From a virus, in the IMG/VR virus record IMGVR_UViG_3300001533_001295, positions 1 to 64,000 of that record: a DNA stretch of 64,000 nt; one strand, 5' to 3'. This document shows positions 35,539 to 54,662 of this stretch, piece by piece; within the stretch, counting starts at the first letter, position 1, and the number at the start of each line of letters is the position of its first letter. Under the pieces are notes generated by a model, which saw only the letters and a list, made by a program, of their open reading frames with translations, had not been told where the DNA came from and did no database searches. The translations under genes were made by a program, and so were the position numbers.

Positions 35539-35579
35539 CAGTTGGGACCGTAGCTCAAAGGTTAGAGCAGGAAACTCAT

Positions 35580-36356: not shown

Positions 36357-36437
36357 AATTTCTTGGTTGCGGGTTCGAATCCTGCCGGTCCTATTTTAGT
36401 CATTATCTTAGTTTTAAACTTTAACTAGGTTTATACC

Positions 36438-37076
36438 ATGTTTAGTCTATTAGCGGTCATGTGTGTGAATGACTTAATCTTTAGTAAAATTGAGCCAGTT
36501 ACTAATAGATTTGGTTCAGGTACTTTTTATTCGGACGTAATGAATTATGCTTCAAATCCATACGTCCGGGATATAAGGTCTACCAACGCGCACGAGACAA
36601 CGCATGGTATAAACTCGTCACTAAGAAACAGATTCAGGAGCGTTTATCCTCATAAGATAAACGCTTTTTTTGTTGGTAGAGGGGAGTACGTAGTACTCGC
36701 CGAACCTAACATCAGGTTGAGAGATGTAGCGCAATTTGTTCCGGCGGCTCTAAGAGGTCGCCGTTTTAATTTGTACTTCGTGCAACAAGTTAGGCACTGG
36801 GACGATACGCCTTTATATGTGTTAGACGAGTTCGTTTGTTACATAAACGGAGGTAAGGTATGCGTAGACGATCTGTTAAATAATCGGTACAGACAAGAGA
36901 ACACAGACGGCGTGTCTGGTTGTTTAGAGTTTGCCATATACTCTATGGCTTTGGTGAAGTGTATAGAGATTAGAGATCCAGGTTACTTTGAGCGAGAGAA
37001 AAATTTCCTACCATTTATTAACCACTTAATATTTGAGGCAGGTCTTACGTTTTATAAAGGAAGTCAGTTTAGGTAG
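36438..37076 (+). CDS. HExxH metalloprotease-like protein
   Basis: AHETTHGIN and downstream LDEF; frame stays open 47 codons past the TAG. Confidence 0.6.
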   Translation: MFSLLAVMCVNDLIFSKIEPVTNRFGSGTFYSDVMNYASNPYVRDIRSTNAHETTHGINSSLRNRFRSVYPHKINAFFVGRGEYVVLAEPNIRLRDVAQFVPAALRGRRFNLYFVQQVRHWDDTPLYVLDEFVCYINGGKVCVDDLLNNRYRQENTDGVSGCLEFAIYSMALVKCIEIRDPGYFEREKNFLPFINHLIFEAGLTFYKGSQFR

Positions 37077-37222
37077 CTATATAGTCCTACCCAAAATGCT
37101 CTATTAAGAAGACTACAGACAGAACCGTCGGCTAGAGAAATACTAGATCTACTAAGAGGAAGTTTTTACTTAGAACAACAAAGAAGCGGAATCAGACTCT
37201 TTCAAAACCAAAGGAATTAAGC

Positions 37223-38200: not shown

Positions 38201-38215
38201 GCTTAGTTAAATAAC

Positions 38216-38258
38216 GCGTCCCCGCTCGTTTCTGGGCGGGGACGCTCATCTATTTTTT
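38216..38258 (+). terminator. GC-rich hairpin, probable terminator
   Basis: gcgtccccgctc/gggcggggacgc with T run shortly after. Confidence 0.6.
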
Positions 38259-38416
38259 AACTAGCAGCAGGTGTGGTAAAGTGTATTAGAGCTTGATCAT
38301 TGGCGCCTGTAACTAACTCTAAGTCTTAAATAAAGTCCGCCTATCTTTGCCTCAAAGCAAAGTATCTTTGGCGGATTTTTTGTCTACCCACACAACTTTC
38401 ACTTGAGGAAATTCTC

Positions 38417-40357: not shown

Positions 40358-40367
40358 AGGAAGCAAC

Positions 40368-43300
40368 ATGTCCGACTTCTACTGGCTTAACAATGACTCT
40401 AGGCTTTTTCTATCCCGAGGATATTTAGCCGAGGGTCAAGAAGCTGAGGATAGGCTTCTAGATATTAGTAAGAACGCTGAGAAGACGTTAGGCCCTAACT
40501 TCGCCGGCTTTGCTGATAAGTTCTATGGTTATTTAGCTAGAGGCTTCTACTCCCTAGCTACGCCGGTCTGGACTAATTACGGAAACGATCGCGGACTTCC
40601 TGTGTCCTGCGTTGTTGGTGATACATGGATAAATACAAAATATAATGGAGGCAAACTAGCTAAAGATATAGAAATAGGAGACGAGGTTTTAACTCATAAA
40701 GGGCAATATAAAAAAGTAACAGATGTAATTTTAACAAAAAATCAAAAAGATATTTATAAAATTAAAATATCTAGCAGAATGACACCACTATACATCACTG
40801 GAAACCATTTGGTTTTAACAAATTTAGGATGGGTTAGATGTGATGAGTTAAATTCAGATTACCATCTTGTCGCTATTAACGGAGATATAGAATATATTGA
40901 GCAAGATTACGAAATAGATCTAAAACCATTTTGTAATTTTGAATCAACTATAATTGATGGTAAAATATGTAAATTAATTACAGACAATATAAAGTATAAA
41001 AAAAGATCAAAGAACGGAGTATATGTTGATTACTACGCTACACCCAAAGAAAAAATACAAGTAGATAACGACCTAGCTTGGGCTTTGGGGTTGTGGTTTG
41101 CCGAGGGATCCCTTAGCACTAGAGGTGGCTCACCGTGCGGAATTCGTATAACGTATAATACTAAAGACGAAAAAGAATTGGGGGATAAATGGTTCCATAT
41201 AATGTCTGAAAAATTCGGCTTAAAAGGTAACATCTATGACAGTGTGTGTAATAGAAATGGAAAATCTACAAGCTGGAGTAACGCAAATATTAACTCTAAT
41301 ATTATAGGTAATTTTTTCGAATCTTTTGGTAAAGGATGTAAAGAAAAAACAATACCTCAATGGATTATTGATCTACCCAAAGAAAAACTTGATCTTTTCT
41401 TAAAAGGCTTGTTGGATGGGGATGGTACAAAAACTAAAAGCAATTCCAACAGAATAACCGTAGCAAATCCTAAAATGCTGCTTCAAATATACCAGATAGG
41501 ACTAAAACTTGGTTTGCAGATGTCGCTGCAAATGCAAGAAAAAGCAGGAAAATTAGCAACAACTACACATACTTATACATGTATCTTTATATCTTATGAA
41601 ACAGATAATAGAAGATCTAGCAGATTTGCTATTAAATTTCATGATGGTTTATATTACTCGAAAATTAGAGAAATATTAAAAACAGATAAATCAGAAGATG
41701 TATATGATTTTACTGTTGAAGATGATCATTCTTTTAGCGCTGCTGGTGTCCTACTTCATAATTGCTTCAACTCACATTTGTCGGACAAAATGCAGTCTAT
41801 ACTATATAAGACTGCTGAAGTCGGCATGATGAGTAAGTACGGCGGCGGCACATCTGGTTACTTCGGCGACATACGTCCTAGAGGCGCGCCTATAAGCGTA
41901 GGCGGCACTTCTAGCGGAGCCGTACACTTTATGGAGTTGTTCGATAAAGTGGCAGATACGGTGAACCAGGGCAACTCTAGGCGCGGATCTTTCGCTGCCT
42001 ACTTACCTGTAAGCCATCCCGACATACTAGAGTTTTTGCGCATAAGATCTGACGGCCATCCTATTCAGAACATGTCGATAGGTGTAACTATCACCGACGA
42101 CTGGATGAGAGATATGATTGCCGGAGACAAAGACAAGCGTAAGGTATGGGCTAAGATAATTGAGAAGAGATTTGAGAGCGGTTATCCTTATGTCGCTTTT
42201 ATAGACAACATTAATAAAAACAATCCTAAAGTTTATAAAGATAAAAATTTAAGCGTAAAATCACAAAATCTTTGCGTTGCTGGAGACCAGCGGGTTGTAA
42301 CTAGCCGAGGTATGCTTACAGCTAAAGAGCTGTATGAGATCGGAGGTAACTTAACACTGTTTGACAACGATAAGATTGTTAATTCAGGGCCTATGTCTCT
42401 TGTAGAACGTATGGCCGATGTCTATGAAATTGAGCTAGATAACGGCCTCACACATAAAGTTACTAGCTACCATAAAGTTAAAGTCAGGACGTCTGGCACT
42501 TTGGATACGGTAGTTAAGACGGCCGACGTAGCTTGCTCAGATTTAAACGTAGGCGATTTAGTAGCTGTTCAGACTAATAAAGGTCTGTTTGGTGACGTCA
42601 ATAAAGAAGATGAAGCTTTTCTACTAGGCTTGCACCAATCAGAAACTGAAGATAATACGTTAACTGAAGTCCCAGACTGGATCTGGGAGTCAAACGAAGA
42701 TACGCAGAGAGCATATATAAGAGGCCTACTACTTCCAAATATTGGAAGAGGGCTGCACCACCGGTCAAAGGACTTCCTAAAAGACTTACAACTCGTACTA
42801 GTGAATTTGGGAATTAACTGTGCTTTAAAATTAAGAGAAGCTGAAGGGGTTTATACACTTTATAGTTTAGACGATGATTTAGATAACGCCTTCCATAAAA
42901 TTAAGTCTATTAATTACGTAGGCCAAGAAGACGTCTACTGCGTGACTGTAGACTCAGCAGAGCACCATTGGGTCTGCAACGGAGTCGTAACACATAACTG
43001 CGCGGAAATATCGCTCCATTCAGATGAAAAATACTCTTTTGTATGCGTGTTATCTTCTATAAACTTAGAACACTGGGATGCTATAAAGTCTACAGACGCG
43101 GTCGAGACGCTAATATATTTCCTCGACACGGTAAACGAGGAGTTCGTCCGTAAGTCTAAGGATCTTCCTTTTATGGAACATCCTTATAATTTCGCTAAAG
43201 ACCATAGGGCTCTAGGTCTTGGGGTTTTAGGCTGGCACTCGTATCTTCAGTCTAAGATGATACCTTTCGATAGCTTTGAAGCTAATCTAGAGAACGTAAG

Positions 43301-43901
43301 CATCTTTAAGACTATATCTGAGCGCTGTAAAGCAGCTACGACTAAGCTAGCGGATGTTCTAGGTGAGCCAGATATTCTAAAAGGTTACGGCGCGCGTAAT
43401 ACGCACACAATGGCGATAGCTCCTACGACATCTTCGTCTTTTATATTAGGTCAGGTATCACCTAGCATAGAGCCACTCAATAGTAACTACTTTGTTAAGC
43501 GTTTAGCCAAAGGTAACTTCACTTATAGAAATCCTTATCTAGTGGATTTACTAAAGGCTAAAAATAAGGATGACGCTAACACGTGGCACAGCATCCTAAC
43601 GCACGGCGGATCTGTACAGCATTTAGACTTTATGGACGACCATGAGAAGAACGTCTTTAAGACCTTCTCAGAAATTAGTCCTAAGCAAGTCATAATTCAA
43701 GCTGCCCAACGCCAGCAGCACATCGATCAAGGTCAGAGCTTAAACATCATGATACCGCCTGGTACTAAGGCTAAGTTAGTAAGTGATCTTATGATCTTTG
43801 CTTGGGAGCAAGGAGTAAAGAGTCTCTACTATCAGCGAAGCGCTAATCCATCTCAGCAGTTGTCTAGAGAGATACTAAACTGCTCTGCATGCGAGTCGTA
43901 G
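40368..43901 (+). CDS. nrdA: Class Ia ribonucleotide reductase alpha subunit with two inteins
   Basis: LPVSC, KYGGGT, QGNSRRG, NLC.EI, AIAPT, HIDQGQSLN, KSLYY, C-terminal CSAC. Confidence 0.95.
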   Translation: MSDFYWLNNDSRLFLSRGYLAEGQEAEDRLLDISKNAEKTLGPNFAGFADKFYGYLARGFYSLATPVWTNYGNDRGLPVSCVVGDTWINTKYNGGKLAKDIEIGDEVLTHKGQYKKVTDVILTKNQKDIYKIKISSRMTPLYITGNHLVLTNLGWVRCDELNSDYHLVAINGDIEYIEQDYEIDLKPFCNFESTIIDGKICKLITDNIKYKKRSKNGVYVDYYATPKEKIQVDNDLAWALGLWFAEGSLSTRGGSPCGIRITYNTKDEKELGDKWFHIMSEKFGLKGNIYDSVCNRNGKSTSWSNANINSNIIGNFFESFGKGCKEKTIPQWIIDLPKEKLDLFLKGLLDGDGTKTKSNSNRITVANPKMLLQIYQIGLKLGLQMSLQMQEKAGKLATTTHTYTCIFISYETDNRRSSRFAIKFHDGLYYSKIREILKTDKSEDVYDFTVEDDHSFSAAGVLLHNCFNSHLSDKMQSILYKTAEVGMMSKYGGGTSGYFGDIRPRGAPISVGGTSSGAVHFMELFDKVADTVNQGNSRRGSFAAYLPVSHPDILEFLRIRSDGHPIQNMSIGVTITDDWMRDMIAGDKDKRKVWAKIIEKRFESGYPYVAFIDNINKNNPKVYKDKNLSVKSQNLCVAGDQRVVTSRGMLTAKELYEIGGNLTLFDNDKIVNSGPMSLVERMADVYEIELDNGLTHKVTSYHKVKVRTSGTLDTVVKTADVACSDLNVGDLVAVQTNKGLFGDVNKEDEAFLLGLHQSETEDNTLTEVPDWIWESNEDTQRAYIRGLLLPNIGRGLHHRSKDFLKDLQLVLVNLGINCALKLREAEGVYTLYSLDDDLDNAFHKIKSINYVGQEDVYCVTVDSAEHHWVCNGVVTHNCAEISLHSDEKYSFVCVLSSINLEHWDAIKSTDAVETLIYFLDTVNEEFVRKSKDLPFMEHPYNFAKDHRALGLGVLGWHSYLQSKMIPFDSFEANLENVSIFKTISERCKAATTKLADVLGEPDILKGYGARNTHTMAIAPTTSSSFILGQVSPSIEPLNSNYFVKRLAKGNFTYRNPYLVDLLKAKNKDDANTWHSILTHGGSVQHLDFMDDHEKNVFKTFSEISPKQVIIQAAQRQQHIDQGQSLNIMIPPGTKAKLVSDLMIFAWEQGVKSLYYQRSANPSQQLSREILNCSACES
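40608..41762 (+). mobile_element. NrdA intein 1 with LAGLIDADG endonuclease (385 aa)
   Basis: PVS|CVVGDT...LGLWFAEG...KGLLDGDG...VYDFTVEDDHSF...LHN|CF. Confidence 0.92.
42273..42998 (+). mobile_element. NrdA intein 2 with degenerate endonuclease (242 aa)
   Basis: SQNL|CVAGDQ...FLLGL...AYIRGL...VYCVTV...VTHN|CAEI. Confidence 0.92.
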
Positions 43902-44092
43902 TAAACACGCAAGAAACTGGCTTAACGTCTTTAACTAGTTACGTTGAAGTCATAAGACACACAGGCCCCGTTACTATATTTAGTAACGGGGTTTTGTTTC
44001 AACATAACCCGCTAGAAGATGCGTACAATTTTATAGACACCAGAAATAAAGTTTTTTACAGAAGCATACTTTATGAAGTACGGCCCAAATGA
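43889..44092 (+). CDS. RxTGP-family small protein
   Basis: IRHTGP. Confidence 0.7.
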   Translation: MRVVVNTQETGLTSLTSYVEVIRHTGPVTIFSNGVLFQHNPLEDAYNFIDTRNKVFYRSILYEVRPK

Positions 44093-44110
44093 TGAGATAT
44101 CTTTAAACCT

Positions 44111-44335
44111 ATGACTATGTTGGTAAAAATTAATTCTCTAACTAACGGTGGTAATGAAAATCCTTATCTAACTTTAGAGTACGGTAGAAACTACAAAAAC
44201 AAACATAGACAAACCGGACCTACTCAGTACATACACAACAATAACGGAATATTACTTGCTAAAAACACTTCGCATAAAATTATTTATTTTAGAGAGAAAT
44301 TAGCTACAAATTGGATAAAAGAATGGCCAAGTTAA
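44111..44335 (+). CDS. RxTGP-family small protein
   Basis: HRQTGP. Confidence 0.7.
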   Translation: MTMLVKINSLTNGGNENPYLTLEYGRNYKNKHRQTGPTQYIHNNNGILLAKNTSHKIIYFREKLATNWIKEWPS

Positions 44336-44538
44336 AGCCAGGCGAGGCCGGAATGCTAGTTGAAGTAAATAGTTTATCTTTTATTTACGGTAATAGTAGG
44401 TATTTAAGGTGTACAGGCCCGTCCATTTGTCGCGAAAATAGAGTGTCTTTTGATACGTGGAACTACAGTACCTTGGAAAACAGACTGAAACATGTTAAAG
44501 CCAAAGATAGAGAACACAATATCCCATGGCTCAGCTAA
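44311..44538 (+). CDS. RxTGP-family small protein
   Basis: LRCTGP. Confidence 0.7.
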   Translation: MDKRMAKLKPGEAGMLVEVNSLSFIYGNSRYLRCTGPSICRENRVSFDTWNYSTLENRLKHVKAKDREHNIPWLS

Positions 44539-44765
44539 CTGCGTCAGTTTACTTAAATAATTACAGAAAAACCATGATAACCAAAACCGAAAGCCTAGTA
44601 GTTGAGGTAACTAAGGTTAGTGTTGTTTACGGCGACTACCTCAAACTGAGGTACACAGGTCCGTCAGTCTGTTTCATGTCTAGAATAACTTACGACAGAA
44701 CATCTAAAAGTACTTCTAAACTAAAACATATTGACGCTAAACATAGAAAATTAACTTTCACGTGA
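44526..44765 (+). CDS. RxTGP-family small protein
   Basis: LRYTGP. Confidence 0.7.
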   Translation: MAQLTASVYLNNYRKTMITKTESLVVEVTKVSVVYGDYLKLRYTGPSVCFMSRITYDRTSKSTSKLKHIDAKHRKLTFT

Positions 44766-44772
44766 GGATTGA

Positions 44773-44985
44773 ATGGTTCAAATAAAAATAAGCAAAGATT
44801 CTTTAACTTATTGTTTAGAAGAAAAAAGTGAAACACGTAGCAATCGCATTTTTTTAATGCGCAGATCTACCGGGTCATCACATATAAACAATAAATATAT
44901 GTGTCTACATAAATCAATTTTAAAATCTAACGATGATGTCGTTACTTTCTTCTTTAACTACAAAAAAATCTTTAACAGAGCCTAA
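44773..44985 (+). CDS. RxTGP-family small protein (divergent)
   Basis: RRSTGS. Confidence 0.6.
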   Translation: MVQIKISKDSLTYCLEEKSETRSNRIFLMRRSTGSSHINNKYMCLHKSILKSNDDVVTFFFNYKKIFNRA

Positions 44986-45200
44986 TGAACACAGTATTTG
45001 TATTTATATCTGCTAATAAAGTATCTGTGTTTATATCTGCTGATAAAATCAAGACTAAAAGACACACGTATATGTACTACTCTAACACCGACGGCTCAGG
45101 GCGAGTAAACTACACCGGACCAGTAGTTATGGGAGATGCGTATATAAGCGTATACAATTTTAAGTTTAAGTATGTACGGAAAATTCCAAGTATATCGTAA
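44985..45200 (+). CDS. RxTGP-family small protein
   Basis: VNYTGP. Confidence 0.7.
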   Translation: MNTVFVFISANKVSVFISADKIKTKRHTYMYYSNTDGSGRVNYTGPVVMGDAYISVYNFKFKYVRKIPSIS

Positions 45201-45423
45201 AATGGCTAGACATAAAAAACATACGTGTCAGGTAACCGTCTCTGAGCCGTCTGCAATTAGCACAATTATTATTTACGGGCAGTACGCTTCATGCAGACAC
45301 ACCGGCCCCTCTGTGGTATCTTCTGACCACATTTGTCTAGAGTACAATGACTGTAACAACTTATATGAATTAAAAATTTGCTATTTTAGGACTACAAAAA
45401 TCGAAAAGTCAATTTGTGCTTAA
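45172..45423 (+). CDS. RxTGP-family small protein
   Basis: CRHTGP. Confidence 0.7.
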   Translation: MYGKFQVYRKMARHKKHTCQVTVSEPSAISTIIIYGQYASCRHTGPSVVSSDHICLEYNDCNNLYELKICYFRTTKIEKSICA

Positions 45424-45432
45424 ATTTACACA

Positions 45433-45678
45433 TTGATAAGAAAAATTATGCCTCATGTAATCATTTCTAGATATAGTGTAATTATTTATAAAATATACGA
45501 TGAAAATATGAACGATAACATCGCACTTAACTACTACTGCGGGTCCTTAACCTGTCGTCGGTATACTGGACCTGGCATAATTCGGGCTAGTAATATTTGT
45601 CTAATTTATTCTGAAGCATCAGGAGAAACTCATTTTAAGGTCTGTAAATTTAAGCTTAAGAGGGCGTCATGCTTGTAG
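45433..45678 (+). CDS. RxTGP-family small protein
   Basis: RRYTGP. Confidence 0.7.
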   Translation: MIRKIMPHVIISRYSVIIYKIYDENMNDNIALNYYCGSLTCRRYTGPGIIRASNICLIYSEASGETHFKVCKFKLKRASCL

Positions 45679-45914
45679 AAGTTTCTAATAATATAACAGT
45701 TTATGGTAGTTACGTAGAAGCTAGATATACTGGCCCTGCGGTATTTCGTCATGATTCGGTTTATCTAGATTATTATATAAATTTTAAAGAACGTAATTCA
45801 GTGCAGATACAGCTAGGTAGTGCTGTTAAACCCGTAGAATGTTTTACTCAAAAAATTTGCTACTTTAAGATCAAAAAGACAAACGATCTTTTTGATTTTA
45901 GTACTAAGCAATGA
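45669..45914 (+). CDS. RxTGP-family small protein
   Basis: ARYTGP. Confidence 0.7.
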   Translation: MLVEVSNNITVYGSYVEARYTGPAVFRHDSVYLDYYINFKERNSVQIQLGSAVKPVECFTQKICYFKIKKTNDLFDFSTKQ

Positions 45915-46099
45915 GACTGAAGATTCAACCGTATAGCGTAACTATCGCTAAAGTAGGGATTAATAATTTCCTAAAATACTACGTCATATATAGTCCTGAA
46001 ATGAGTCAGTTTAGGTATACCGGGCCAGCTATAATTTGGGCTAACATTTCTTTTTTAGACAAAATATTTGCAGCACGAGCCGCTGCCAGGATGTTTTAG
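45911..46099 (+). CDS. RxTGP-family small protein
   Basis: FRYTGP. Confidence 0.7.
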   Translation: MRLKIQPYSVTIAKVGINNFLKYYVIYSPEMSQFRYTGPAIIWANISFLDKIFAARAAARMF

Positions 46100-46101
46100 C
46101 G

Positions 46102-46281
46102 ATGTTTAGTGTATCTATAACGCATATAGGCTTAGGGTATGGTAATTTTATCTTAGCTAGAAATACCGGGCCTCGGTTAATAATTAAAAACTACGTCGTC
46201 TTACAGTATCTGTCTCCAGAGAAAGTCTACTGCTGTAAAATTTGCGCGCACTCAAACAAACAAAATTACTATGCAAGTTAA
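46102..46281 (+). CDS. RxTGP-family small protein (59 aa, not in ORF track)
   Basis: MFSVSITHIGLGYGNFILARNTGP... Confidence 0.7.
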   Translation: MFSVSITHIGLGYGNFILARNTGPRLIIKNYVVLQYLSPEKVYCCKICAHSNKQNYYAS

Positions 46282-46417
46282 TATAAATGCTTTTAACGTG
46301 TTAATTTATGACTTCGTCAGACATACTGGGCCTTGTGCGCTAGATAATGGAAGTTTCGATTTAGATGTTTATTCGACTGAAAACGGTTATTACGTGCAGA
46401 CTTTTTGTTATCTCTAG
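46271..46417 (+). CDS. RxTGP-family small protein (48 aa, not in ORF track)
   Basis: MQVNINAFNVLIYDFVRHTGP... Confidence 0.7.
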   Translation: MQVNINAFNVLIYDFVRHTGPCALDNGSFDLDVYSTENGYYVQTFCYL

Positions 46418-46506
46418 TAAGCAAACAATCGACTATCCCCACTGAGTGAAAAAGCTTAGATAAGCGTAACTTTTTTAAATTCTACTTACCTGAGAACAAA
46501 CACTGC

Positions 46507-46737
46507 ATGACTAATTTGAGCGTAACAGTGTCGAATATGAAGATATCGTACGGTGACTATATTTCTAGATATCAGGTTGTTAGAGCTGGCCTTACTTTCT
46601 ATAGACATACAGGACCTTATGTAGTCTCAGACAACTACGTTCTACTTGATACATACTTTCAGCAAATACTTGTAAAACTCATTACTTCCGTTAGGTGTTT
46701 AATAATATGTCTCAAATTGGTACCTTTAATAGAATGA
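46507..46737 (+). CDS. RxTGP-family small protein
   Basis: YRHTGP. Confidence 0.7.
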   Translation: MTNLSVTVSNMKISYGDYISRYQVVRAGLTFYRHTGPYVVSDNYVLLDTYFQQILVKLITSVRCLIICLKLVPLIE

Positions 46738-46982
46738 CGAACGTAACTAGTCACAGTGAGGACGGCTGTCAGATAGTTCCCCAGTTAATAAAAATTTCAA
46801 AAAACGAGGTTGTTTATGGTAACAGATACTTAATTAGATATACCGGGCCTTCTATAATATACTCGATATCATGCTGTGCAGATCTTAGTCATTTCCCAAA
46901 CACGTACCGTCAAATAATTTTTGACATACGTAAAAAAAAATTATGTAGACATGAAACAGAATATAAAAAACAAGTATTTTAA
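46695..46982 (+). CDS. RxTGP-family small protein
   Basis: IRYTGP. Confidence 0.7.
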   Translation: MFNNMSQIGTFNRMTNVTSHSEDGCQIVPQLIKISKNEVVYGNRYLIRYTGPSIIYSISCCADLSHFPNTYRQIIFDIRKKKLCRHETEYKKQVF

Positions 46983-47214
46983 AAGACATCCTCCAATGTA
47001 TAGGTTTCCAACCATAAACATGCGGCTGAAATTTAAAATTTTTGTAAAAATAGTTGATAGAAGAAATTTAAACTACAGTTTCTTAGGAAAATACTCATTA
47101 AGAGATCACCGATTAACCGGCCCCGCCGTAATCACTAACAGATACGTTGCTTTAAAACATAATTTGTCTAGAAAATCTAAATTCTATTTTTACACTAATA
47201 AAAAATCTTTGTGA
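46921..47214 (+). CDS. RxTGP-family small protein
   Basis: HRLTGPAVI. Confidence 0.7.
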   Translation: MTYVKKNYVDMKQNIKNKYFKRHPPMYRFPTINMRLKFKIFVKIVDRRNLNYSFLGKYSLRDHRLTGPAVITNRYVALKHNLSRKSKFYFYTNKKSL

Positions 47215-47244
47215 TCGTTGCTTCTTCTAAGGTAGCGCGCTTGC

Positions 47245-47445
47245 ATGTTTAAAGTAGTAGTAGATAGCTCAGGGATATGGTACTACTCACCGTTAGGGCT
47301 AGCTAAGTACACCGGTCCTTGTATAGCGGGTCGTAATTATTTTGTTTTAAAGAAAATAATAAAACTAAGAAAACGCAATAATGGACGTAGGCCGCTGCTG
47401 CATTATAGATACGCAGTTAAATACCGTGAAATTAAAATTATCTAG
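47245..47445 (+). CDS. RxTGP-family small protein
   Basis: AKYTGP. Confidence 0.7.
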   Translation: MFKVVVDSSGIWYYSPLGLAKYTGPCIAGRNYFVLKKIIKLRKRNNGRRPLLHYRYAVKYREIKII

Positions 47446-47667
47446 ATGTTCCCAGTAAAGATATCACTACACCATATAGTTTATGTCAGTACCGATGGAC
47501 CAGGTCGAATAAGATACACTGGACCAGCAATTGTAGGGCGTACGTATTCATATTTATATTCGTTCCAAGAAAAATACCGTATTAGAAAAATTTATGATTT
47601 TAGGCTTAAAACAAGTTACGTATTTGCAGAGGAATTAGATGTTAAGGATAGAAGTATCGTTAAGTAG
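47446..47667 (+). CDS. RxTGP-family small protein
   Basis: IRYTGP. Confidence 0.7.
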   Translation: MFPVKISLHHIVYVSTDGPGRIRYTGPAIVGRTYSYLYSFQEKYRIRKIYDFRLKTSYVFAEELDVKDRSIVK

Positions 47668-47803
47668 GGTAATTTACGTCTACGGCAGATATACCGGTCC
47701 TTCCTCAATATTTCTTCTAAGAATTTACTTAGACTCGATTAAAGAAGGACGCTATGTTGAAAAAATCTATGATTTTATAAATAAGTCCGAGCAGATTTTT
47801 TAG
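47639..47803 (+). CDS. RxTGP-family small protein (54 aa, not in ORF track)
   Basis: MLRIEVSLSRVIYVYGRYTGP...YLDSIKEG. Confidence 0.7.
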   Translation: MLRIEVSLSRVIYVYGRYTGPSSIFLLRIYLDSIKEGRYVEKIYDFINKSEQIF

Positions 47804-47808
47804 TTAGG

Positions 47809-48000
47809 ATGCAGATGATCAAGATAAAAATAGCGCCAGGTCGTGTAATGTACGACCACAGCTTATATAGGTATACCGGTCCTTACGTAATATTTCCTAG
47901 ACTAATCTTCTTAGACTCGTTTAAAGAAGAACTATATGTTCAAATAATTTATGATATTAAACGTAAATGCGAGCAAAATACGGATATGTCTGAAAATTAG
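47809..48000 (+). CDS. RxTGP-family small protein
   Basis: YRYTGP...LDSFKEE. Confidence 0.7.
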   Translation: MQMIKIKIAPGRVMYDHSLYRYTGPYVIFPRLIFLDSFKEELYVQIIYDIKRKCEQNTDMSEN

Positions 48001-48192
48001 ATGTTCGGCGTAAGGATAACACTAGACTGCGTAATCTACGGCACTTTAGAATCATATAGATACACCGGTCCCTCTGTAGTACGCGCTAGCGCCGCCTACT
48101 TAGACTCGATTAAAGAAGGGGGTTATGTGCAGATAATTCATGAGGTTAAACATAAATCAAAACGAACTGTAAATTTAACTGATTATACGTAG
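48001..48192 (+). CDS. RxTGP-family small protein
   Basis: YRYTGP...YLDSIKEG. Confidence 0.7.
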   Translation: MFGVRITLDCVIYGTLESYRYTGPSVVRASAAYLDSIKEGGYVQIIHEVKHKSKRTVNLTDYT

Positions 48193-48248
48193 TGGCACTT
48201 ACTTAGACTCGATTAAAGAAGGGGGTTATGTGCAGATAATTCATGAGG
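48097..48248 (+). repeat. Exact 49-bp direct repeat (48097-48145 and 48200-48248)
   Basis: tacttagactcgattaaagaagggggttatgtgcagataattcatgagg twice. Confidence 0.9.
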
Positions 48249-48369
48249 ACCACAATCCAATATATGTTAATAGTCCGTTTAAGATGCAAACTCAGTTTAG
48301 TACGGACTTTACTATTGAAGAAATTATAAAAAGTGATGAAGTAGCGAAGTTTATGTCACGGTTTGAGTA

Positions 48370-48639
48370 ATGTTCAAATCAATAATTGCAGGTAAACGTG
48401 TAGCAGTTATTAAAGTTAGAGTTAGCTTGCGGGAAGTTAATTATTACGAATATAAGTTTAATAATTGGAAAAACACGGGTATAAATTTTTCTAGGGATAC
48501 GGGAGCTGCTTTAATGAAGCGATCTTCATCGTATTTTTGTTCCAGCGGTAGAACACTTAAAACGGTGTTTGTTTGTATGACGTTAGGAAATGGAGATAAC
48601 GTTGACAAAGTCGTACAGGTGTTCCCGTCGTATGATTGA
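48370..48639 (+). CDS. RxTGP-family small protein (divergent)
   Basis: SRDTGA. Confidence 0.65.
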   Translation: MFKSIIAGKRVAVIKVRVSLREVNYYEYKFNNWKNTGINFSRDTGAALMKRSSSYFCSSGRTLKTVFVCMTLGNGDNVDKVVQVFPSYD

Positions 48640-48666
48640 TAATCGTCTCAACGTAGAAATTCATCC

Positions 48667-48900
48667 ATGCTAGATGATATTGACAGCGACTCAGTTAATG
48701 TAGTCGTTACTGTAACGCGGTCTGGCGTTATTGACTTCTTAGTCAGAAAAAGATACACCGGACCTTACGCTATAATTAAAGATAGCATATGGTTAATTGA
48801 GTCTCACAGAGGATCTATGTGTGACTTTACTACTGTAATTATCACTGCTAGCGATAGGCGGCGGCGCTCAGCAGGTTTCGCGAGTGAGTGTCTTGATTAA
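48667..48900 (+). CDS. RxTGP-family small protein
   Basis: KRYTGP. Confidence 0.7.
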   Translation: MLDDIDSDSVNVVVTVTRSGVIDFLVRKRYTGPYAIIKDSIWLIESHRGSMCDFTTVIITASDRRRRSAGFASECLD

Positions 48901-49105
48901 GGATAATCGTAATTTGGTCTACGTAATTGTTAAAGCTAACAATAAATTTAGATTTAACCTTTGCAGGTACACAGGTGTCTGTTGTAACACACCTACGTAT
49001 GCGCTACTTATGCGCCTTAACGTTAATGATGTGTACGTAGATAACATTTGCGTAAAGTACATTTCGGCGTTAACGCACAAGATAGAAAAATCAACTCATA
49101 GCTGA
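48884..49105 (+). CDS. RxTGP-family small protein
   Basis: CRYTGV. Confidence 0.65.
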   Translation: MSVLIKDNRNLVYVIVKANNKFRFNLCRYTGVCCNTPTYALLMRLNVNDVYVDNICVKYISALTHKIEKSTHS

Positions 49106-49106
49106 A

Positions 49107-49370
49107 GTGTTATATATGAAATTAACGCCGTTTATAGTAGATATTTCTCCACAGCAAAAGGCTAAAAACAAGCACGTAATATTTAACTACGATAACTACA
49201 ATCAATTTAGATATACTGGAGCTTGCTTAAGCACAAAAACCGACGTAGTCTTGAGAACGCCAACTTTAATAACACCAGAGCGACCGAAAGAACTTAGACT
49301 TAAACTAATTATTGTAGAATATAAAAAAACGCAGATTTTACCAGTTGCTTATCCTTGGACTCTCGAATAA
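49107..49370 (+). CDS. RxTGP-family small protein
   Basis: FRYTGA. Confidence 0.65.
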   Translation: MLYMKLTPFIVDISPQQKAKNKHVIFNYDNYNQFRYTGACLSTKTDVVLRTPTLITPERPKELRLKLIIVEYKKTQILPVAYPWTLE

Positions 49371-49578
49371 CGCTAATGTAATGACGTTAGTTGTTGAAAT
49401 TAGTAACACGCTACGCATATCGTATTGCGTAGATAAAAAAACTAATTTAAAAATTATCACAGAATACAGATTTACTGGGGCTGCGTTTGTAGTTCGCGGT
49501 ATTTCTTATTTAAACAAAAAAAACACTTTATACTTAATACTTGACGTACGCAACAGAAAGGTAGCTGGTCTTGTGTAA
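49345..49578 (+). CDS. RxTGP-family small protein
   Basis: YRFTGA. Confidence 0.65.
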   Translation: MLILGLSNNANVMTLVVEISNTLRISYCVDKKTNLKIITEYRFTGAAFVVRGISYLNKKNTLYLILDVRNRKVAGLV

Positions 49579-49582
49579 GCCA

Positions 49583-49729
49583 ATGGTAATAGTAACGATT
49601 CATTACTTAGAATATAAAATTAACGCAACTTATCCGCACAGATTGCGTGTATTGTGTGCAGCTTATGAACGTACGACTTACGGAAATTTACGCCATTATG
49701 TTAGAGATACCGGGTTATTTCTTGTTTAA
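49583..49729 (+). CDS. RxTGP-family small protein, truncated (48 aa, not in ORF track)
   Basis: ...YGNLRHYVRDTGLFLV*. Confidence 0.5.
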   Translation: MVIVTIHYLEYKINATYPHRLRVLCAAYERTTYGNLRHYVRDTGLFLV

Positions 49730-49732
49730 ACG

Positions 49733-49942
49733 ATGTGTAAGGTATTTAGTATGAATGAATTTGACGTTTTAAGCGTCGATATTTTTAGTGTCGATTATTT
49801 TATTTACGGAGATTACAACAAATACAGACACACCGGCCCCTCTGTAATTAAGAAACATGTAGTAGCTTTAGATAAGTATGTAGCCCATCCACGCATACCA
49901 GCCAGGATTGATGCGTCTAAAAAAATTACTGATTTTAACTAA
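49733..49942 (+). CDS. RxTGP-family small protein
   Basis: YRHTGP. Confidence 0.7.
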   Translation: MCKVFSMNEFDVLSVDIFSVDYFIYGDYNKYRHTGPSVIKKHVVALDKYVAHPRIPARIDASKKITDFN

Positions 49943-49944
49943 GT

Positions 49945-50172
49945 ATGAAAAATATCAGAGTAACGGTAGGCATCGATGCTAGAAAAATAGCCCACAACAC
50001 AAGCATACATTTTTGTGTTTATTTTATTTACGTAAACTACGGCAACAAATACGACCGGTTTACCGGTCCTTGCGCGTCTTTTCAAGATGACACTGTCTCG
50101 ATCAACAACACCGAATTAGACTTAAAGAAAAAGACAGAACGCAGTTACTTAAATTATTTTTACCGCAGATAG
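49945..50172 (+). CDS. RxTGP-family small protein
   Basis: DRFTGP. Confidence 0.7.
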   Translation: MKNIRVTVGIDARKIAHNTSIHFCVYFIYVNYGNKYDRFTGPCASFQDDTVSINNTELDLKKKTERSYLNYFYRR

Positions 50173-50178
50173 TAACTA

Positions 50179-50421
50179 TTAAAAAGACTTGACCTCGTTT
50201 TTATTTAAATCAACATCAGTGTTGTTGACTGAGTTACCTAAATTAGAGCAAGAGCCAAGTATAGTTATTACGCCTACGACAACTGTAACCCAAGCAGCTA
50301 CTGTAGAAGGCTTGAGTACGTCTTTACCTTCTCCAGGTTCGTTTAAGTAATCTCCACCAACTACTTTGTCTATCTTATTTACGTTGTTGATGTTTATTTT
50401 AGTGATCTTATCTCTTCGCAT
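50179..50421 (-). CDS. Small membrane protein
   Basis: One hydrophobic segment VAAWVTVVVGVITILG. Confidence 0.6.
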   Translation of the reverse strand: MRRDKITKININNVNKIDKVVGGDYLNEPGEGKDVLKPSTVAAWVTVVVGVITILGSCSNLGNSVNNTDVDLNKNEVKSF

Positions 50422-50422
50422 A

Positions 50423-50725
50423 TCAGTCTACTTTATTATTAGTTTCTCCACCTAGATTACCTATAGAGTTTACTCGGTCTATATCTATGTTGACGTTGGA
50501 CTTGTTACTAATGATTTGTACTGAGTGAATTAAATTCTCATGCCTAGTACACAGGTGCTCAAACTTACTTTCTAACTTACCTATATCAGCTACACACCTA
50601 TCTATGTTTTGTGCGTGAAATCTCATGTTAGCTTTAAGGTTAGTGATGTCTGCGTATATAGCTGCAAACTCTCCTCTAAGCTTATCTAACCTGTCTATGA
50701 GTTCTACGTATCTAGTGACGTCCAC
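50423..50725 (-). CDS. Coiled-coil hypothetical protein
   Basis: Heptad pattern; part of a minus-strand three-gene operon. Confidence 0.6.
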   Translation of the reverse strand: MDVTRYVELIDRLDKLRGEFAAIYADITNLKANMRFHAQNIDRCVADIGKLESKFEHLCTRHENLIHSVQIISNKSNVNIDIDRVNSIGNLGGETNNKVD

Positions 50726-50738
50726 GACTAAACCTTAA

Positions 50739-51386
50739 CTAGCTAGAGCATAGTAAATAATGTTTTCCGTCAAACATATATTTATGTACGTGCGTGTGTA
50801 TCTTACGTAGCTCATTATTACTTAAACCAACCTCCAATGTTAATTCTGCGTCATGTCTACAACTGGGTATAGCTAAAATTAGGTATAATTCTTTTATACT
50901 GTCCTCACTCAAAAACGAATTAACTTCAGACCCTACCAACTCTTCACACACCTTATTAAACTGTTCGGCAAATTCTTGTGTCGAAAAAATTACATTTAAA
51001 TTCTCGTCTATGATGATGAACTTTAAATGTGCTTCTTTTATGCCGTAGAGCGTAGTTATTGCTCGCTGGTTAGATCCATCCGCATCTGGGATGTAGCTTT
51101 CGGTTAAACCATCTATAGCTTTGTCTAAACTATCCTCTATCTTTTTTATGCGTAAATCTTCAAACACCATAAACACACACATAAAAGCCAGAGTAGACGA
51201 GGCCACGATCGTTATAGTTATCACTAAGCTGTTGTTTTGATTTAACTCTTGCTTAGTAACCGTGTCCAAGCTAACTTCTGCTGCGTAATTAATCTTGTAG
51301 TCGAGATTAAACAACGTAATAAATAGAATACTTATGTATACTATCGTTGTAGGTATTAAGTATTTATCGAATCCTAAAGTTGTCAT
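50739..51386 (-). CDS. Membrane protein with PAS-like domain
   Basis: Two TM segments, then IIIDENLNVIFSTQEFAEQFN...EELVGSEVNSFL. Confidence 0.6.
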   Translation of the reverse strand: MTTLGFDKYLIPTTIVYISILFITLFNLDYKINYAAEVSLDTVTKQELNQNNSLVITITIVASSTLAFMCVFMVFEDLRIKKIEDSLDKAIDGLTESYIPDADGSNQRAITTLYGIKEAHLKFIIIDENLNVIFSTQEFAEQFNKVCEELVGSEVNSFLSEDSIKELYLILAIPSCRHDAELTLEVGLSNNELRKIHTHVHKYMFDGKHYLLCSS

Positions 51387-51450
51387 AACTAACTGCTCAA
51401 GCTTATCTTATTGTTAACAGGGTTGGTTTTCGCACCGAATTCAATTACCA

Positions 51451-52101
51451 TTGTTTGATGGCTTTACGCCGACAATTGAAACTTACTCTATTCTAGGTAC
51501 AAGTAGCATGTCTGACGAATTAGACGCTGTCCTTAACTATATTAGCTCTAAATTAAATAAGAGCAGCGCTATTCCAGCAGAAGAATTAGCGGGTGCGGCG
51601 CAGCAGATTCCAGGCCAAGAACCTCCTATGGATCCTGCTGCAGGCGGAGCTCCGCCAGTAGATCCCGCTACTGGTATGCCTATGGATCCGGCCATGATGG
51701 ATCCGGCCATGATGGATCCGGCCATGATGGATCCGGCTATGGCTGGCGGACCGCCTATGGATCCTGCGGACGATCCTATCTTAGGTGAGCTATTCGGTAA
51801 GTTAGATTTAGTAGTAAAGAAGAACTCACAGATCTTAACTCTCGTAGCTTCTATTGCAGAGGCTCTGGGAGTTCAGCCTAGCATTGCCGAGCTTCTTGAA
51901 GCTGGCGAGGACGTGGTAGATGAGAACGCCATGAAGCAGGCCAGCGTTCCAGAAGGTTACGTCGAAGTGCCTTACGGTTACTCAGACGGCAAACCTAGTC
52001 ACGTCAGCGATACGGTTGAAGACGTTAAGAACAGTCAGCATGAGAAGCTGTCCTCGTCTGCGGCTGTATTCAAGCGTTATCTAGCTACGAAAAACAAGTA
52101 A
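51451..52101 (+). CDS. Probable virion protein with MDPAM repeats (likely start 51508)
   Basis: 15-bp repeat atggatccggccatg three times; KSSA, KQAS motifs. Confidence 0.65.
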   Translation: MFDGFTPTIETYSILGTSSMSDELDAVLNYISSKLNKSSAIPAEELAGAAQQIPGQEPPMDPAAGGAPPVDPATGMPMDPAMMDPAMMDPAMMDPAMAGGPPMDPADDPILGELFGKLDLVVKKNSQILTLVASIAEALGVQPSIAELLEAGEDVVDENAMKQASVPEGYVEVPYGYSDGKPSHVSDTVEDVKNSQHEKLSSSAAVFKRYLATKNK

Positions 52102-52105
52102 AGCT

Positions 52106-52351
52106 GTGAAAAATAATTTATCAGCTGGCATTTTCTCTTTAGGCAGCGATCACGGTAAAGTAATATCTGGCGATGTTATCGTGATCTTCGACCAGTATGG
52201 GTCGCCTTTGGTAGGCGTAGATAAAGTAGCAAACAAGCTAACTCTTATCTGCACCCACGATAAGCCTGATGAAATGCGTCAGTTTTTAGCTAGGCATAAC
52301 ATACCAACTAATGTACCTAATGTAACTTCGGTTAAGATACCTCATGGCTGA
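52106..52351 (+). CDS. Hypothetical protein
   Basis: 81 aa ORF. Confidence 0.6.
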   Translation: MKNNLSAGIFSLGSDHGKVISGDVIVIFDQYGSPLVGVDKVANKLTLICTHDKPDEMRQFLARHNIPTNVPNVTSVKIPHG

Positions 52352-54662
52352 TCTAACGTTTGGGCAATTAATTTTATCTAAAATTTTGCCGCCGGACGTT
52401 TATAGGCCGGGGCAATCTATAGATAAAAAATCTATAAATACTATTCTAGAAGACGTAGCTAGAAAGTATCCCGAACGTTACGAGGACATATCTTTCCAGC
52501 TACTTCAGCTAGGTAAAGACAGCGGTATAGCTCAAGGCGGCGCCAGCTTTGATATAGATGATCTTCTAACACCTCCGAAGGCTAAAATTAGGAGAGATAA
52601 ATTAAAAGACAAAATCAAGCTAGTATTAGAGACAGCTCCACCTGAAGCTAGAAATCAGCTGATAGTTGATATGCTTCAAAAAGCCAGAGATACTGACGTA
52701 GGTGAAGTTCACTCTGAGGCTGAGCAGCTCAAAAATAATTTAGCTATGCAGCTGAAAGGAGCTGGCCGAGGTAACCCTGTCAATTTAGCTAGATTAATAG
52801 CTAGCGATCTAATTTATTCGGACTCAGAAGGAAGTCCTATACCTGTACCTATTCTGCGTAGCTACAGCCAAGGTTTGACGCCCGGCGAGCATCTCTCCAG
52901 TGTGTTTAGTTCTAGGGGAGGTTTGATAGTTACCAAGCTAGGAGTAGGTGAGTCCGGGTATCTATCTAAGATGCTATCAGCAGGGGCTCACAGGCTGGCT
53001 GTGACCGACGTAGACGCCCCTGAAGATAGGCAGTGGCTAGCTAGCGCTAAAGGCTTGCCTGTAGATACCACTGACAACGACAACGTAGGATCCCTGCTGG
53101 CTTACGATGCAGGCCCTTATAAGAGGAACACGGTACTTACGCCTAAGATACTAGAAGATCTTAAAGATAAAGGCTACGACCAAATAGCTGTTAGAAGTCC
53201 TTTGACGACTACTGAGCCGGAAGGTGGCGTGTACGCTAGAGATGTTGGTTTAGATGAAAACCATAAACTAGTAGCTGTTGGCTCAATACCAGGAATACTA
53301 GCTGCTTCTGCTTTATCTGAGCCTTTAACACAAGGAGCGCTCAGCTGCTTATCAGTTGGTACTTTAGTCAGAATGGCGGACAAGTCTGAAAAACCTATTG
53401 AAGAAGTTGATATAGGGGAGTGGGTACTGGGCGCAGACGAGTTGGGAAGAGTGTTCCCTACACTTGTCACAAATATATGGGATCAAGGCAAGCAGCCGGT
53501 ATATAAGTACACTTTTTCTAACTTACCCAACTTAGCGCCAGTTGAAGTAGAATGTACCGAAGAGCATGTCGTACTTTTATCGGACGGCATGAACAATTCT
53601 AAAGAGCCTATCGGTCGTCGCTGCTCTAATAAGACTAACGATATTTGCGCTGTTTACGTAAGTAAAACCGACAAAGCTTACAGCGACTGCTGCGCACCGC
53701 TTAGCTGCGAGTATGTGGGTGAGCGGCAGTGCTACGACATTGAGGTGTCTAATCCGTCTTCGCTATTCGTGCTAGCTAGTGGCTTAGTAGTTAGTAACTC
53801 GAAGCACGGTGGAGCTACAGCTGGCGGAAACATATCCGGCTTTGCTCTTATAGAGAAGCTAGTTAATACACCTAAAGAGTTTAGAGAAGCAGCTACTTAT
53901 GCGTCTAAAGACGGCCAGGTTTCTGCGGTTAAACCTGCGCCGCAAGGTGGTAATTATGTGATTATCAGCGGAGAGAAGCATTACATACCTGCTTCTGCTA
54001 ATATAAATGTTAAGCTCGGACAGTCAGTTGAAGCTGGCGACAGACTCAGCTCTGGTCCAATTCACCCGCATTTAGCTGTCAAGTACAAAGGCTTAGGCGA
54101 AGGAGCTCGGCAGGTTACAAGTCAAATCGTTGAATCTATGCGAGATAGCGGTCTTAAAGTTCACCGCAGAAATGTCGAGCTTGTAGTCAGAGGGCTTCTC
54201 GACCGTGTACGCCTAACGTCTGAATACGGCGATTACGTTCCTGATGACGTAGTGCCTTACAGCCGTATAGAGAGTTCTTATCAGCCAAGGCATGGGTTTA
54301 AACGCCTACCATCTGCTCAAGCAGCCAATAAGTATCTAGAAACTCCTACACTGCATTACACAATTGGAACTAGAATTACTCCTTCGGTTATAAAGAATTT
54401 AAATCGATTTAAGATTGACAAAGTAGACGTACATGATGAACCGCCGCCATTTGAACCAGAAGTGGTCCGTGCGGTAGATTTATTACAGACGGATCCAGAT
54501 TGGCTCACTAGGCATTACGGTACAGGACTTCAAAAAGGTTTACTCAAAGCTGTCCATGAAGGCGACGTATCTTCTACAGATAGTACAAGTTTTGTTCCGG
54601 CTAGGGCTAAAGCTGTAGGTTTTGGTGACAATGAGCCTTTTAAGCTAAAACCACAGGTATAA
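52344..54662 (+). CDS. Phage RNA polymerase beta' C-terminal half, with intein
   Basis: GAGRGN, SYSQGLTP, bridge helix RGGLIVTKLGVGESGYLSKML, VRSP, trigger loop SALSEPLTQGALS|SKHGG, VHRRNVELVVR. Confidence 0.9.
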   Translation: MADLTFGQLILSKILPPDVYRPGQSIDKKSINTILEDVARKYPERYEDISFQLLQLGKDSGIAQGGASFDIDDLLTPPKAKIRRDKLKDKIKLVLETAPPEARNQLIVDMLQKARDTDVGEVHSEAEQLKNNLAMQLKGAGRGNPVNLARLIASDLIYSDSEGSPIPVPILRSYSQGLTPGEHLSSVFSSRGGLIVTKLGVGESGYLSKMLSAGAHRLAVTDVDAPEDRQWLASAKGLPVDTTDNDNVGSLLAYDAGPYKRNTVLTPKILEDLKDKGYDQIAVRSPLTTTEPEGGVYARDVGLDENHKLVAVGSIPGILAASALSEPLTQGALSCLSVGTLVRMADKSEKPIEEVDIGEWVLGADELGRVFPTLVTNIWDQGKQPVYKYTFSNLPNLAPVEVECTEEHVVLLSDGMNNSKEPIGRRCSNKTNDICAVYVSKTDKAYSDCCAPLSCEYVGERQCYDIEVSNPSSLFVLASGLVVSNSKHGGATAGGNISGFALIEKLVNTPKEFREAATYASKDGQVSAVKPAPQGGNYVIISGEKHYIPASANINVKLGQSVEAGDRLSSGPIHPHLAVKYKGLGEGARQVTSQIVESMRDSGLKVHRRNVELVVRGLLDRVRLTSEYGDYVPDDVVPYSRIESSYQPRHGFKRLPSAQAANKYLETPTLHYTIGTRITPSVIKNLNRFKIDKVDVHDEPPPFEPEVVRAVDLLQTDPDWLTRHYGTGLQKGLLKAVHEGDVSSTDSTSFVPARAKAVGFGDNEPFKLKPQV
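53346..53798 (+). mobile_element. Mini-intein (151 aa) in RNAP trigger loop
   Basis: ALS|CLSVGTLVRMAD...CTEEH...CYDIEV...LVVSN|SKH. Confidence 0.88.

Follow-up and report, generated by a model that had tools for sequence, protein, structure and literature searches.

An orphan family of small, highly diverged tandem genes downstream of nrdA in a phage record from IMG/VR

Introduction

Large viral genomes are already known to carry expanded families of small proteins built on hairpin motifs or repeats. Among these is MORN, a 23-aa beta-type repeat that serves protein–protein contacts and, like other repeat families, has been expanded as multigene families in giant viruses (PMC5753266). For sets of diverse small basic proteins with one short element in common, the best-documented analogue is provided by the internal proteins of phage T4 (IPI-IPIII, from polymorphic loci), which PMC3012670 describes as small, basic and highly diverse and as sharing a single short element; the mature IPI* of T4 comprises 76 residues, contains beta sheets and is an inhibitor of a host restriction enzyme. 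Here we analyze a tandem array of small genes located at 43889-50172 of the window, which is the first 64 kb of the IMG/VR virus record IMGVR_UViG_3300001533_001295 (84,772 bases, about 42% complete by estimate). The array takes up about 7% of the record (6.3 of 84.8 kb).

Compared with these systems, the products of the array are single-unit mini-proteins whereas MORN proteins are repeat arrays, and their shared element (a five-residue turn with the core R-x-T-G-P) is internal whereas the T4 element is a cleaved N-terminal capsid-targeting sequence. An initial annotation, made from the letters of the window, had regarded the array as its best candidate for an undescribed system. The protein family itself is new and orphan, and to that extent the claim stands; it does not stand for the type of locus, since large uncultured phages often carry small hairpin-motif genes in tandem.

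A tandem family of protein-coding paralogs

The array directly follows nrdA, the identity of which was confirmed with Pfam, and it is a tandem family of real protein-coding paralogs (Table 1). Copies were called from motif matches, each lying within its own open frame, and from mutual alignment, and their starts were chosen to yield a common N-terminus (M-x-V-x-V). Called in this manner, 27 intact genes of 48–89 aa cover 89% of the region, and the profile adds one or two relics, so that the “about 28” copies of the initial annotation are better given as 27 intact copies plus 1–2 relics; the range of 48–97 aa reported with them holds for the longest open reading frames (ORFs) and becomes 48–89 aa with the chosen starts. 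All four ORFs that the ORF track was said to lack (46102, 46271, 47639, and 49583) are open frames, the last of which begins at 49571 in the ORF list.

Several measures set this region apart from the rest of the window and from chance. The loose pattern [RKN]x-T-G-[PAVS] has 27 plus-strand matches between 43955 and 50056, distributed over all three frames, compared with six matches outside the array in the same 64 kb (two on the plus strand and four on the minus strand), and a six-frame search of the 64 kb for the strict form R[YH]TG[PA] gave 15 matches, all of them in the array. ORFs of at least 48 aa within 43889-50172 number 28 on the plus strand (93% cover) and four on the minus strand (10% cover), while in 200 mononucleotide shuffles the number of such ORFs averaged 4.4 and never exceeded 10, and their cover averaged 12% and never exceeded 31%. 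A profile built from the 27 copies recovers all of them at E 1e-10 or better (self-hits by construction); the relics score next on the region, and every minus-strand frame remains at E 0.3 or worse.

The core of the motif is strongly conserved across copies, with T and G in 27/27, R in 25/27 and P in 22/27. The R is followed by Y or H in 19 copies, Y is the commonest residue at position -7 (10/27), a hydrophobic residue occupies +6 in 20 copies and +7 in 23, and L and D are found at +14 and +15 in 19 and 11 copies respectively. The motif sits 16–41 residues from the chosen starts, and the conserved part of the proteins corresponds to the N-terminal half. Codon usage within the motif is mixed: ACC 15, ACT 6, ACA 5 and ACG 1 for Thr; GGA 8, GGT 7, GGC 6 and GGG 6 for Gly; CCT 12, CCC 5, CCA 3 and CCG 2 for Pro; and AGA, AGG, CGG and CGA for Arg. 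Because the motif codons vary synonymously, the constraint acts on the protein and not on the DNA, as had been claimed, and the open frames exceed the shuffle expectation. The description of the copies as hyper-diverged, with a fixed core and a variable remainder, is likewise borne out by the alignment: pairwise identity averages 24% and does not exceed 48%, with neighbors barely closer to each other than distant copies. Since even the closest pair is only 48% identical, synonymous sites between paralogs are saturated.

The genes are tightly packed. In nine of the 26 junctions the gap is zero or negative, and it exceeds 40 nt in three (89, 177, and 172 nt), two of which hold the relics. The relic that follows copy 20 contains a 93% copy (48190-48248) of 59 nt that encode part of the C-terminal half of that gene product (48087-48145), placed 103 nt downstream, and the duplicate runs on into an acidic tail (46-aa ORF at 48230-48370); this 59-nt repeat looks like a recent partial duplication or unequal crossover. 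The doubtful 28th copy is probably truncated.

As for composition, the products are rich in beta-forming residues, in agreement with the earlier description of beta-type proteins: V+I+Y+F+T+W amount to 37.4% in the array vs 26.4% in 51 other ORFs of the window, with Tyr at 7.9% vs 3.7%, whereas the helix-formers A+E+L+M+Q amount to 17.5% vs 27.9%. The isoelectric point (pI) is at least 7.8 in 25/27 copies, the net charge reaches +14 and the tails are rich in K and R. An ESM Atlas entry is letter-identical to copy 20; its model is poor (predicted local distance difference test, pLDDT, 0.41) and gave no feature match.

Table 1. Coordinates of the array genes, of the relics and of the surrounding features in the window (HMM, hidden Markov model)
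Feature	Coordinates	Strand	Description
Copy 1	43889-44092	+	67 aa, RHTGP
Copy 2	44111-44335	+	74 aa, (H)RQTGP
Copy 3	44353-44538	+	61 aa from ATG 44353 (alternatives 44311, 44323), RCTGP
Copy 4	44574-44765	+	63 aa from ATG 44574 (alternative 44526), RYTGP
Copy 5	44773-44985	+	70 aa, degenerate motif RSTGS
Copy 6	44985-45200	+	71 aa, NYTGP; internal 27-nt direct repeat 44988-45041
Copy 7	45202-45423	+	73 aa from ATG 45202 (alternative 45172), RHTGP
Copy 8	45448-45678	+	76 aa, RYTGP, long pre-motif loop
Copy 9	45669-45914	+	81 aa, RYTGP
Copy 10	45911-46099	+	62 aa, RYTGP
Copy 11	46102-46281	+	59 aa, RNTGP
Copy 12	46271-46417	+	48 aa, RHTGP; pI 4.1, sole clearly acidic copy
Copy 13	46507-46737	+	76 aa, RHTGP, hydrophobic C-terminus
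Copy 14	46734-46982	+	82 aa from ATG 46734 (alternatives 46695, 46707), RYTGP
Copy 15	47020-47214	+	64 aa from ATG 47020 (the longest ORF begins at 46921), (H)RLTGPAVI
Copy 16	47245-47445	+	66 aa, KYTGP
Copy 17	47446-47667	+	73 aa, RYTGP
Copy 18	47639-47803	+	54 aa, RYTGP; 29-nt overlap with copy 17
Copy 19	47809-48000	+	63 aa, RYTGP
Copy 20	48001-48192	+	63 aa, RYTGP
Relic	48179-48367	+	open frame without motif or N-terminal half; HMM E 0.0024
Copy 21	48370-48639	+	89 aa, RDTGA
Copy 22	48667-48900	+	77 aa, RYTGP, pI 5.7
Copy 23	48884-49105	+	73 aa, GTG start, RYTGV
Copy 24	49116-49370	+	84 aa, RYTGA
Copy 25	49381-49578	+	65 aa from ATG 49381 (alternative 49345), RFTGA
Doubtful 28th copy	49583-49729	+	48 aa, ends just past RDTGL; HMM E 0.18 (49565-49726)
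Copy 26	49751-49942	+	63 aa from ATG 49751 (alternative 49733), RHTGP
Copy 27	49945-50172	+	75 aa, RFTGP
Fused beta/beta'-N RNA polymerase gene	28158-32576		Pfam Rpb2_6 1.5e-42, Rpb1_2 5.5e-17
Lineage-specific block separating the polymerase genes (about 19.8 kb)	32577-52343		from gene order in 15 related loci
nrdB	38417-40357		intein-bearing; 646-aa ORF, reductase domains split
nrdA (ribonucleotide reductase large chain with inteins)	40368-43901	+	Ribonuc_red_lgC 1.8e-90, Intein_splicing 7.4e-25
beta'-C RNA polymerase gene, with intein	52344-54662		

Orphan status of the family

The family maps to no characterized family. Pfam gave nothing above chance, with 10 copies and then with all 30 alignment rows, and PHROGs, NCBIfam, PADLOC, PDB sequences and Rfam gave chance-level matches or none; a blastn search of the array against phage GenBank records found no match. 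MORN (PF02493), MORN_2 (PF07661) and DUF6745 were matched by 0/30 members at E up to 10. When the family profile was searched against 1.84 billion representative proteins, 22 matches were found at E 0.001 or better, of which 19 are letter-identical to proteins of the record itself and the other three are near variants. One variant (P0003) is 98% identical to copy 20 over 54 aa and has a different C-terminus, another (P0018) is 91% identical to copy 16 with all six differences in the C-terminal half, and the third (P0009) has copy 19 as its nearest relative at only 56% identity. P0003 and P0009 each lie on a 2619-nt Joint Genome Institute contig, probably the same one, and P0018 comes from ENA contigs no longer than 710 nt. 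With P0009 as query, no related locus was found in viral or metagenome contigs. Searches with the DNA pattern YG-x5-R[YH]TGP[SA] returned 109 metagenome stretches, none with a family HMM E below 0.06, and 5 + 5 stretches in IMG/VR, none of which matched the family.

Presence in relatives and change between strains

The beta'-C protein of the window has homologs of 46–49% identity in 15 IMG/VR loci. In 14 of these the large polymerase gene (40–42% identical) stops about 0.9–3 kb short of the beta'-C gene; the remaining locus has no upstream DNA. None of the related loci has nrdA or nrdB within 10 kb of the beta'-C gene, and the family profile found nothing in the 15 loci. Five related whole records (144–205 kb) contain no family copy either, the best score being E 0.24 within a 731-aa frame. 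Since 14 of the 15 loci lack such a block between the polymerase genes and no family copy was found in the relatives, the array is lineage-specific and forms part of an accessory block, which also carries two tRNA genes, small genes, nrdB and nrdA, and three minus-strand genes.

Strain variants were taken from Logan contigs of two public runs (X3 and X4), with difference counts from 32 of 108 pieces. For run X3, 45 changes fall within 1269 nt of array sequence (3.5%) vs 5 within 936 nt (0.5%) downstream; for run X4 the figures are 45 within 1181 nt of the array (3.8%) vs 6 within 451 nt (1.3%) of nrdA. Copy 27 is the most strain-variable among the listed pieces, with 15 changes plus 3 gaps over 205 nt in X4. 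The codon analysis covers 40 of 140 single-letter differences, a small sample of which 8 fall in nrdA and 31 in array genes, the remaining one being intergenic, and its tests assume 3.3 nonsynonymous sites per synonymous site. In nrdA, 6 changes were synonymous and 2 nonsynonymous (crude dN/dS 0.10), compared with 11 and 20 in all array genes (0.55) and 8 and 10 in the array minus its last gene (0.38); the comparison of nonsynonymous and synonymous counts between array and nrdA gave a Fisher p of 0.059. The R, T, G and P of the motifs were unaltered in this sample, which includes one synonymous change in a motif Pro codon. On this small sample, array genes evolve faster than their neighbors and are less constrained, while the deep conservation of the core shows long-term selection on it. 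Runs X3 and X4 leave some stretches of the array uncovered, from which no inference is drawn.

In Logan contigs of the two main array-bearing runs (X1 and X2), 36 unmatched letters occur at 45146/45147, and several contigs end loose inside the array (at 45792, 46048, and 48245). Assembly that broke at paralogous sequence, or variation between strains, may account for these letters and ends.

Comparison with the HRxDGPA repeat

The initial annotation had likened the array to an HRxDGPA repeat of phages and giant viruses. That repeat exists and is widespread among viral contigs, and the likeness of the array to it is confined to the motif. A degenerate W-Y-x-N-G-x-x-H-R-x-D-G-P-A pattern was found in at least 120 viral stretches, frequently with a 69-nt spacing, and the stretches listed include at least 74 complete small proteins (53–110 aa) of one to four units. 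Tandem arrays of HRxDGPA paralogs are common; locus L080 has nine such genes, and L086 and L094 have four apiece. Literature searches found no paper on the HRxDGPA motif, and the MORN repeat papers listed concern giant viruses and amoebae, with no phage arrays among them. Pfam matched the small HRxDGPA proteins, which are uncharacterized, to DUF6745 (PF20530) and MORN_2 (PF07661) below cut-off, and PHROGs gave essentially nothing. The HRxDGPA arrays themselves are located at 432-5406 in L080 (minus strand, two blocks), 5065-7346 in L094 and 8171-9238 in L086; their genes encode 86–110 aa, lie about 12 nt apart or overlap, and are unannotated in Pfam and PHROGs.

Both groups include small stand-alone proteins in tandem paralog arrays, and their motifs agree in chemistry and in modal spacing, Y-x6-R-x-T-G-P-[SA]-[VI] in the array corresponding to Y-x-N-G-x-x-H-R-x-D-G-P-A-[VI] in the repeat. 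They differ in that the D of the repeat is T in 27/27 array copies, a residue seen at that position in 1/123 motif instances of bona fide small HRxDGPA proteins; additionally, H precedes R in only 2/27 copies and the W-Y-x-N-G strand is absent from the array family. Replacement of D by T is tolerated in HRxDGPA proteins, since two loci (L169 and L153) carry R-[FL]-T-G-P-A units beside HREDGPA units within one protein. With an HMM of 129 HRxDGPA units, nine of the 27 members scored above the 95th percentile of shuffled decoys and four above the 99th.

A further comparison was made with a family that we call HRLTGPA, made up of 35 loci and 17 distinct proteins of about 105–145 aa on large lake-water phage contigs (e.g., IMGVR_UViG_3300042330_000875). 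It aligns with HRxDGPA at a probability of 98.5% in hhalign, and the array family aligns with it at 81% (P 1.3e-5, 17 columns), a score reached by 0/100 shuffles; the flanks without the motif gave a marginal p of 0.017. The HRLTGPA family resembles the array in its T-G-P-A motif variant followed by a hydrophobic residue and in its many-copy, partly tandem organization, and differs from it by an N-terminal Y-Y-I-D-G strand, an S-P-D-E-N-T-P-A segment and a conserved helical tail that lack an array counterpart. Judged from these alignments, descent of the array family from the HRxDGPA repeat, with very strong divergence and a single unit kept, is possible, at somewhat less than even odds.

Proposed function and alternative explanations

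The reading that we favor, with a probability of roughly 0.4, is that the array represents a birth-and-death panel of small beta-rich intracellular binders, a gene family that would grow and decay through duplication and loss. Birth and death is supported by the 93% identical partial duplicate of 59 nt, by the two relics and by the degenerate RSTGS motif. The array would probably be co-transcribed with the upstream nrdB-nrdA genes on one or a few polycistronic messages, early or in the middle of infection alongside the nucleotide-metabolism genes, and translation may be coupled since many copies abut or overlap. Sigma-70-like sites are not enriched in the array (18 vs 28.6 ± 5.8 in shuffles, hence fewer) and terminator-like sites are at chance (5 vs 5.0). 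A Shine–Dalgarno-like word is absent before 19/27 array starts and 31/51 other ORF starts, and the scarcity is not distinctive because the other phage ORFs are equally short of such words. Among the public runs listed with array sequence there is no RNA run.

The predicted products would be small, mostly basic, beta-rich soluble proteins on a common frame. This frame would begin at the N-terminus with the amphipathic strand M-x-V-x-V; a second strand that closes with Y(G), a loop that varies in length and the turn R-[YH]-T-G-P would come next, and then a strand [SA]-[VI]-[IV], a strand ending in L-D, one further strand and a basic tail. The motif would most likely hold a beta-hairpin together, a role ascribed to the similar H-R-x-D-G-P-A unit in the 23-residue repeat. 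The copies would offer one scaffold with many surfaces, able to bind or inhibit host proteins such as defense or takeover targets, and arms-race turnover would keep the family changing. A more specific form of the binder panel appears rather unlikely, namely that the array is a repertoire of single-hairpin mini-binders, the smallest stand-alone form of HRxDGPA/MORN-like proteins, with each copy neutralizing or hijacking a different host protein, for example a component of anti-phage defense, and the set renewed between strains by whole or partial duplication and by loss.

A number of observations speak against the favored reading. The basic charge may be a simple consequence of AT-rich composition, and GC content is near flat by codon position (0.368/0.346/0.334, compared with 0.498/0.385/0.405 in other genes). 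With all copies pooled, the changes between strains do not differ significantly from neutrality (binomial p 0.13), so that some copies may be little constrained. Unlike HRxDGPA proteins, the array proteins carry one motif each and show no 23-residue (69-nt) period; the direct hhalign comparison with HRxDGPA is weak (P 0.0074, probability 5%, 14 columns, motifs superposed), its score being reached by 1/100 column shuffles, and the flanks without the five motif columns gave p 0.10 in fixed register. The match to the HRLTGPA family is partly circular because that family was picked by its motif. Part of these data is what would be expected from a largely neutral expansion, in which tandem duplicates drift in a tolerant island, only the fold-determining turn is selected and there is no division of labor: the pooled dN/dS, the flat codon positions, a GC content of 34–36% vs about 43% around the array, the relics and the degenerate motif all fit it. 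It is nonetheless distinctly improbable, since 27 frames of 48–89 codons have stayed open in DNA of 35% GC despite 24% identity, positions outside the motif are kept (L at +14 and the hydrophobic residue at +7), and without the last gene the departure from neutrality reaches p 0.047.

Among functional alternatives to the binder panel, the array could encode packaged and injected internal proteins like those of T4, with the conserved N-terminal half as a packaging address and host nucleases as the targets to be disarmed. The size of the products, the basic pI of 25/27 copies and the conserved N-terminal half would suit such a role, but the motif lies well inside the chosen starts and not at the extreme N-terminus, prohead-protease sites are not enriched (K-x-A in 5/27 with 5.0 in shuffles, [LI]-x-E in 13 with 8.9 ± 2.3, [SAG]-x-E in 7 with 8.7) and the array adjoins nucleotide-metabolism genes rather than head genes, which makes this explanation improbable. 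We give a similarly low probability to small basic nucleic-acid binders, modulators of transcription or DNA structure with one fold and differing sequence preference: their charge of up to +14, their K/R-rich tails and the position of the array between two RNA-polymerase genes would be in keeping with it, yet no known DNA- or RNA-binding family was matched in the family libraries, AT-rich codons alone predict basic charge and two copies are acidic (pI 4.1 and 5.7). If the copies were instead subunits of one hetero-oligomeric or fiber-like beta-sheet assembly, with strands added edge to edge, the common strand pattern and the probable co-expression would be accounted for; structural subunits are usually conserved in related phages, however, whereas five relatives are without copies and the copy content seems strain-dependent, so that an assembly is very improbable. 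A library of precursors of ribosomally synthesized and post-translationally modified peptides, with a conserved leader and a variable Cys-containing core, has the slightest chance of all: many copies with a conserved N-terminal and a variable C-terminal half and a Cys content of 2.4% (vs 1.1% in other genes) recall it, but Radical_SAM and LANC_like, the two families tested, had no match in the 84.8-kb record (about 42% of the genome), the conserved part resembles a folded beta core rather than a leader, and Cys is absent from 7/27 copies.

Targets of a diversity-generating retroelement were also considered and rejected; RVT_1 had no match in the 84.8-kb record, in line with the earlier statement that no reverse transcriptase is visible.

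Genomic setting

The phage encodes a multisubunit RNA polymerase of its own, and the two polymerase genes of Table 1 flank the block that holds the array. Public runs with the array or parts of it come from four studies (aquatic, freshwater sediment, lake water, and one unlabelled), which indicates a freshwater phage. Upstream, the start of the first array gene overlaps the nrdA stop by 13 nt; nrdA contains Intein_splicing and LAGLIDADG matches plus a second Hint stretch. Intein or Hint modules occur in nrdB, nrdA and the beta'-C gene, a high load for one region. Genes for tRNA-Asn(GTT) and tRNA-Leu(TAA) are located at 32577-32846, directly 3' of the polymerase gene. Per 1000 codons, the array uses 30.9 AGA vs 17.0 in other genes, 37.9 ATA vs 23.5 and 61.8 AAY vs 51.8, with equal use of TTA (34.1 vs 34.0).

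Downstream, the array ends at 50172 and three opposite-strand genes then converge on it. A 36-nt inverted repeat at 50097-50233 (78% complementary, fold -25.9 kcal/mol, z -2.1) straddles the boundary from copy 27 to the convergent gene 50179-50421, and it may be a bidirectional terminator. The 215-aa product of the minus-strand gene at 50739-51386 has two hydrophobic segments near its N-terminus. It also matches the PAS fold weakly, at E 2.9e-4, which does not reach the Pfam cut-off; this is unusual in a phage. At 51451-52101, a 216-aa protein without any family match contains a low-complexity stretch rich in Pro, Met, Asp and Ala, with repeated units of the M-D-P-A-M type.

Conclusions

An orphan family of mini-proteins keeps a five-residue turn and little else, and it outpaces the neighboring genes in change between strains. 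If its expansion were a matter of near-neutral drift, the array would be a clean natural case of viral gene birth and death. If it is a panel of binders, it would show how small a scaffold can get, and host-aimed panels of this type would make such families a large untapped source of small natural inhibitors. Should the array be a repertoire of mini-binders, it would supply some 27 new natural inhibitors, ready-made, on a scaffold of about 60 residues.

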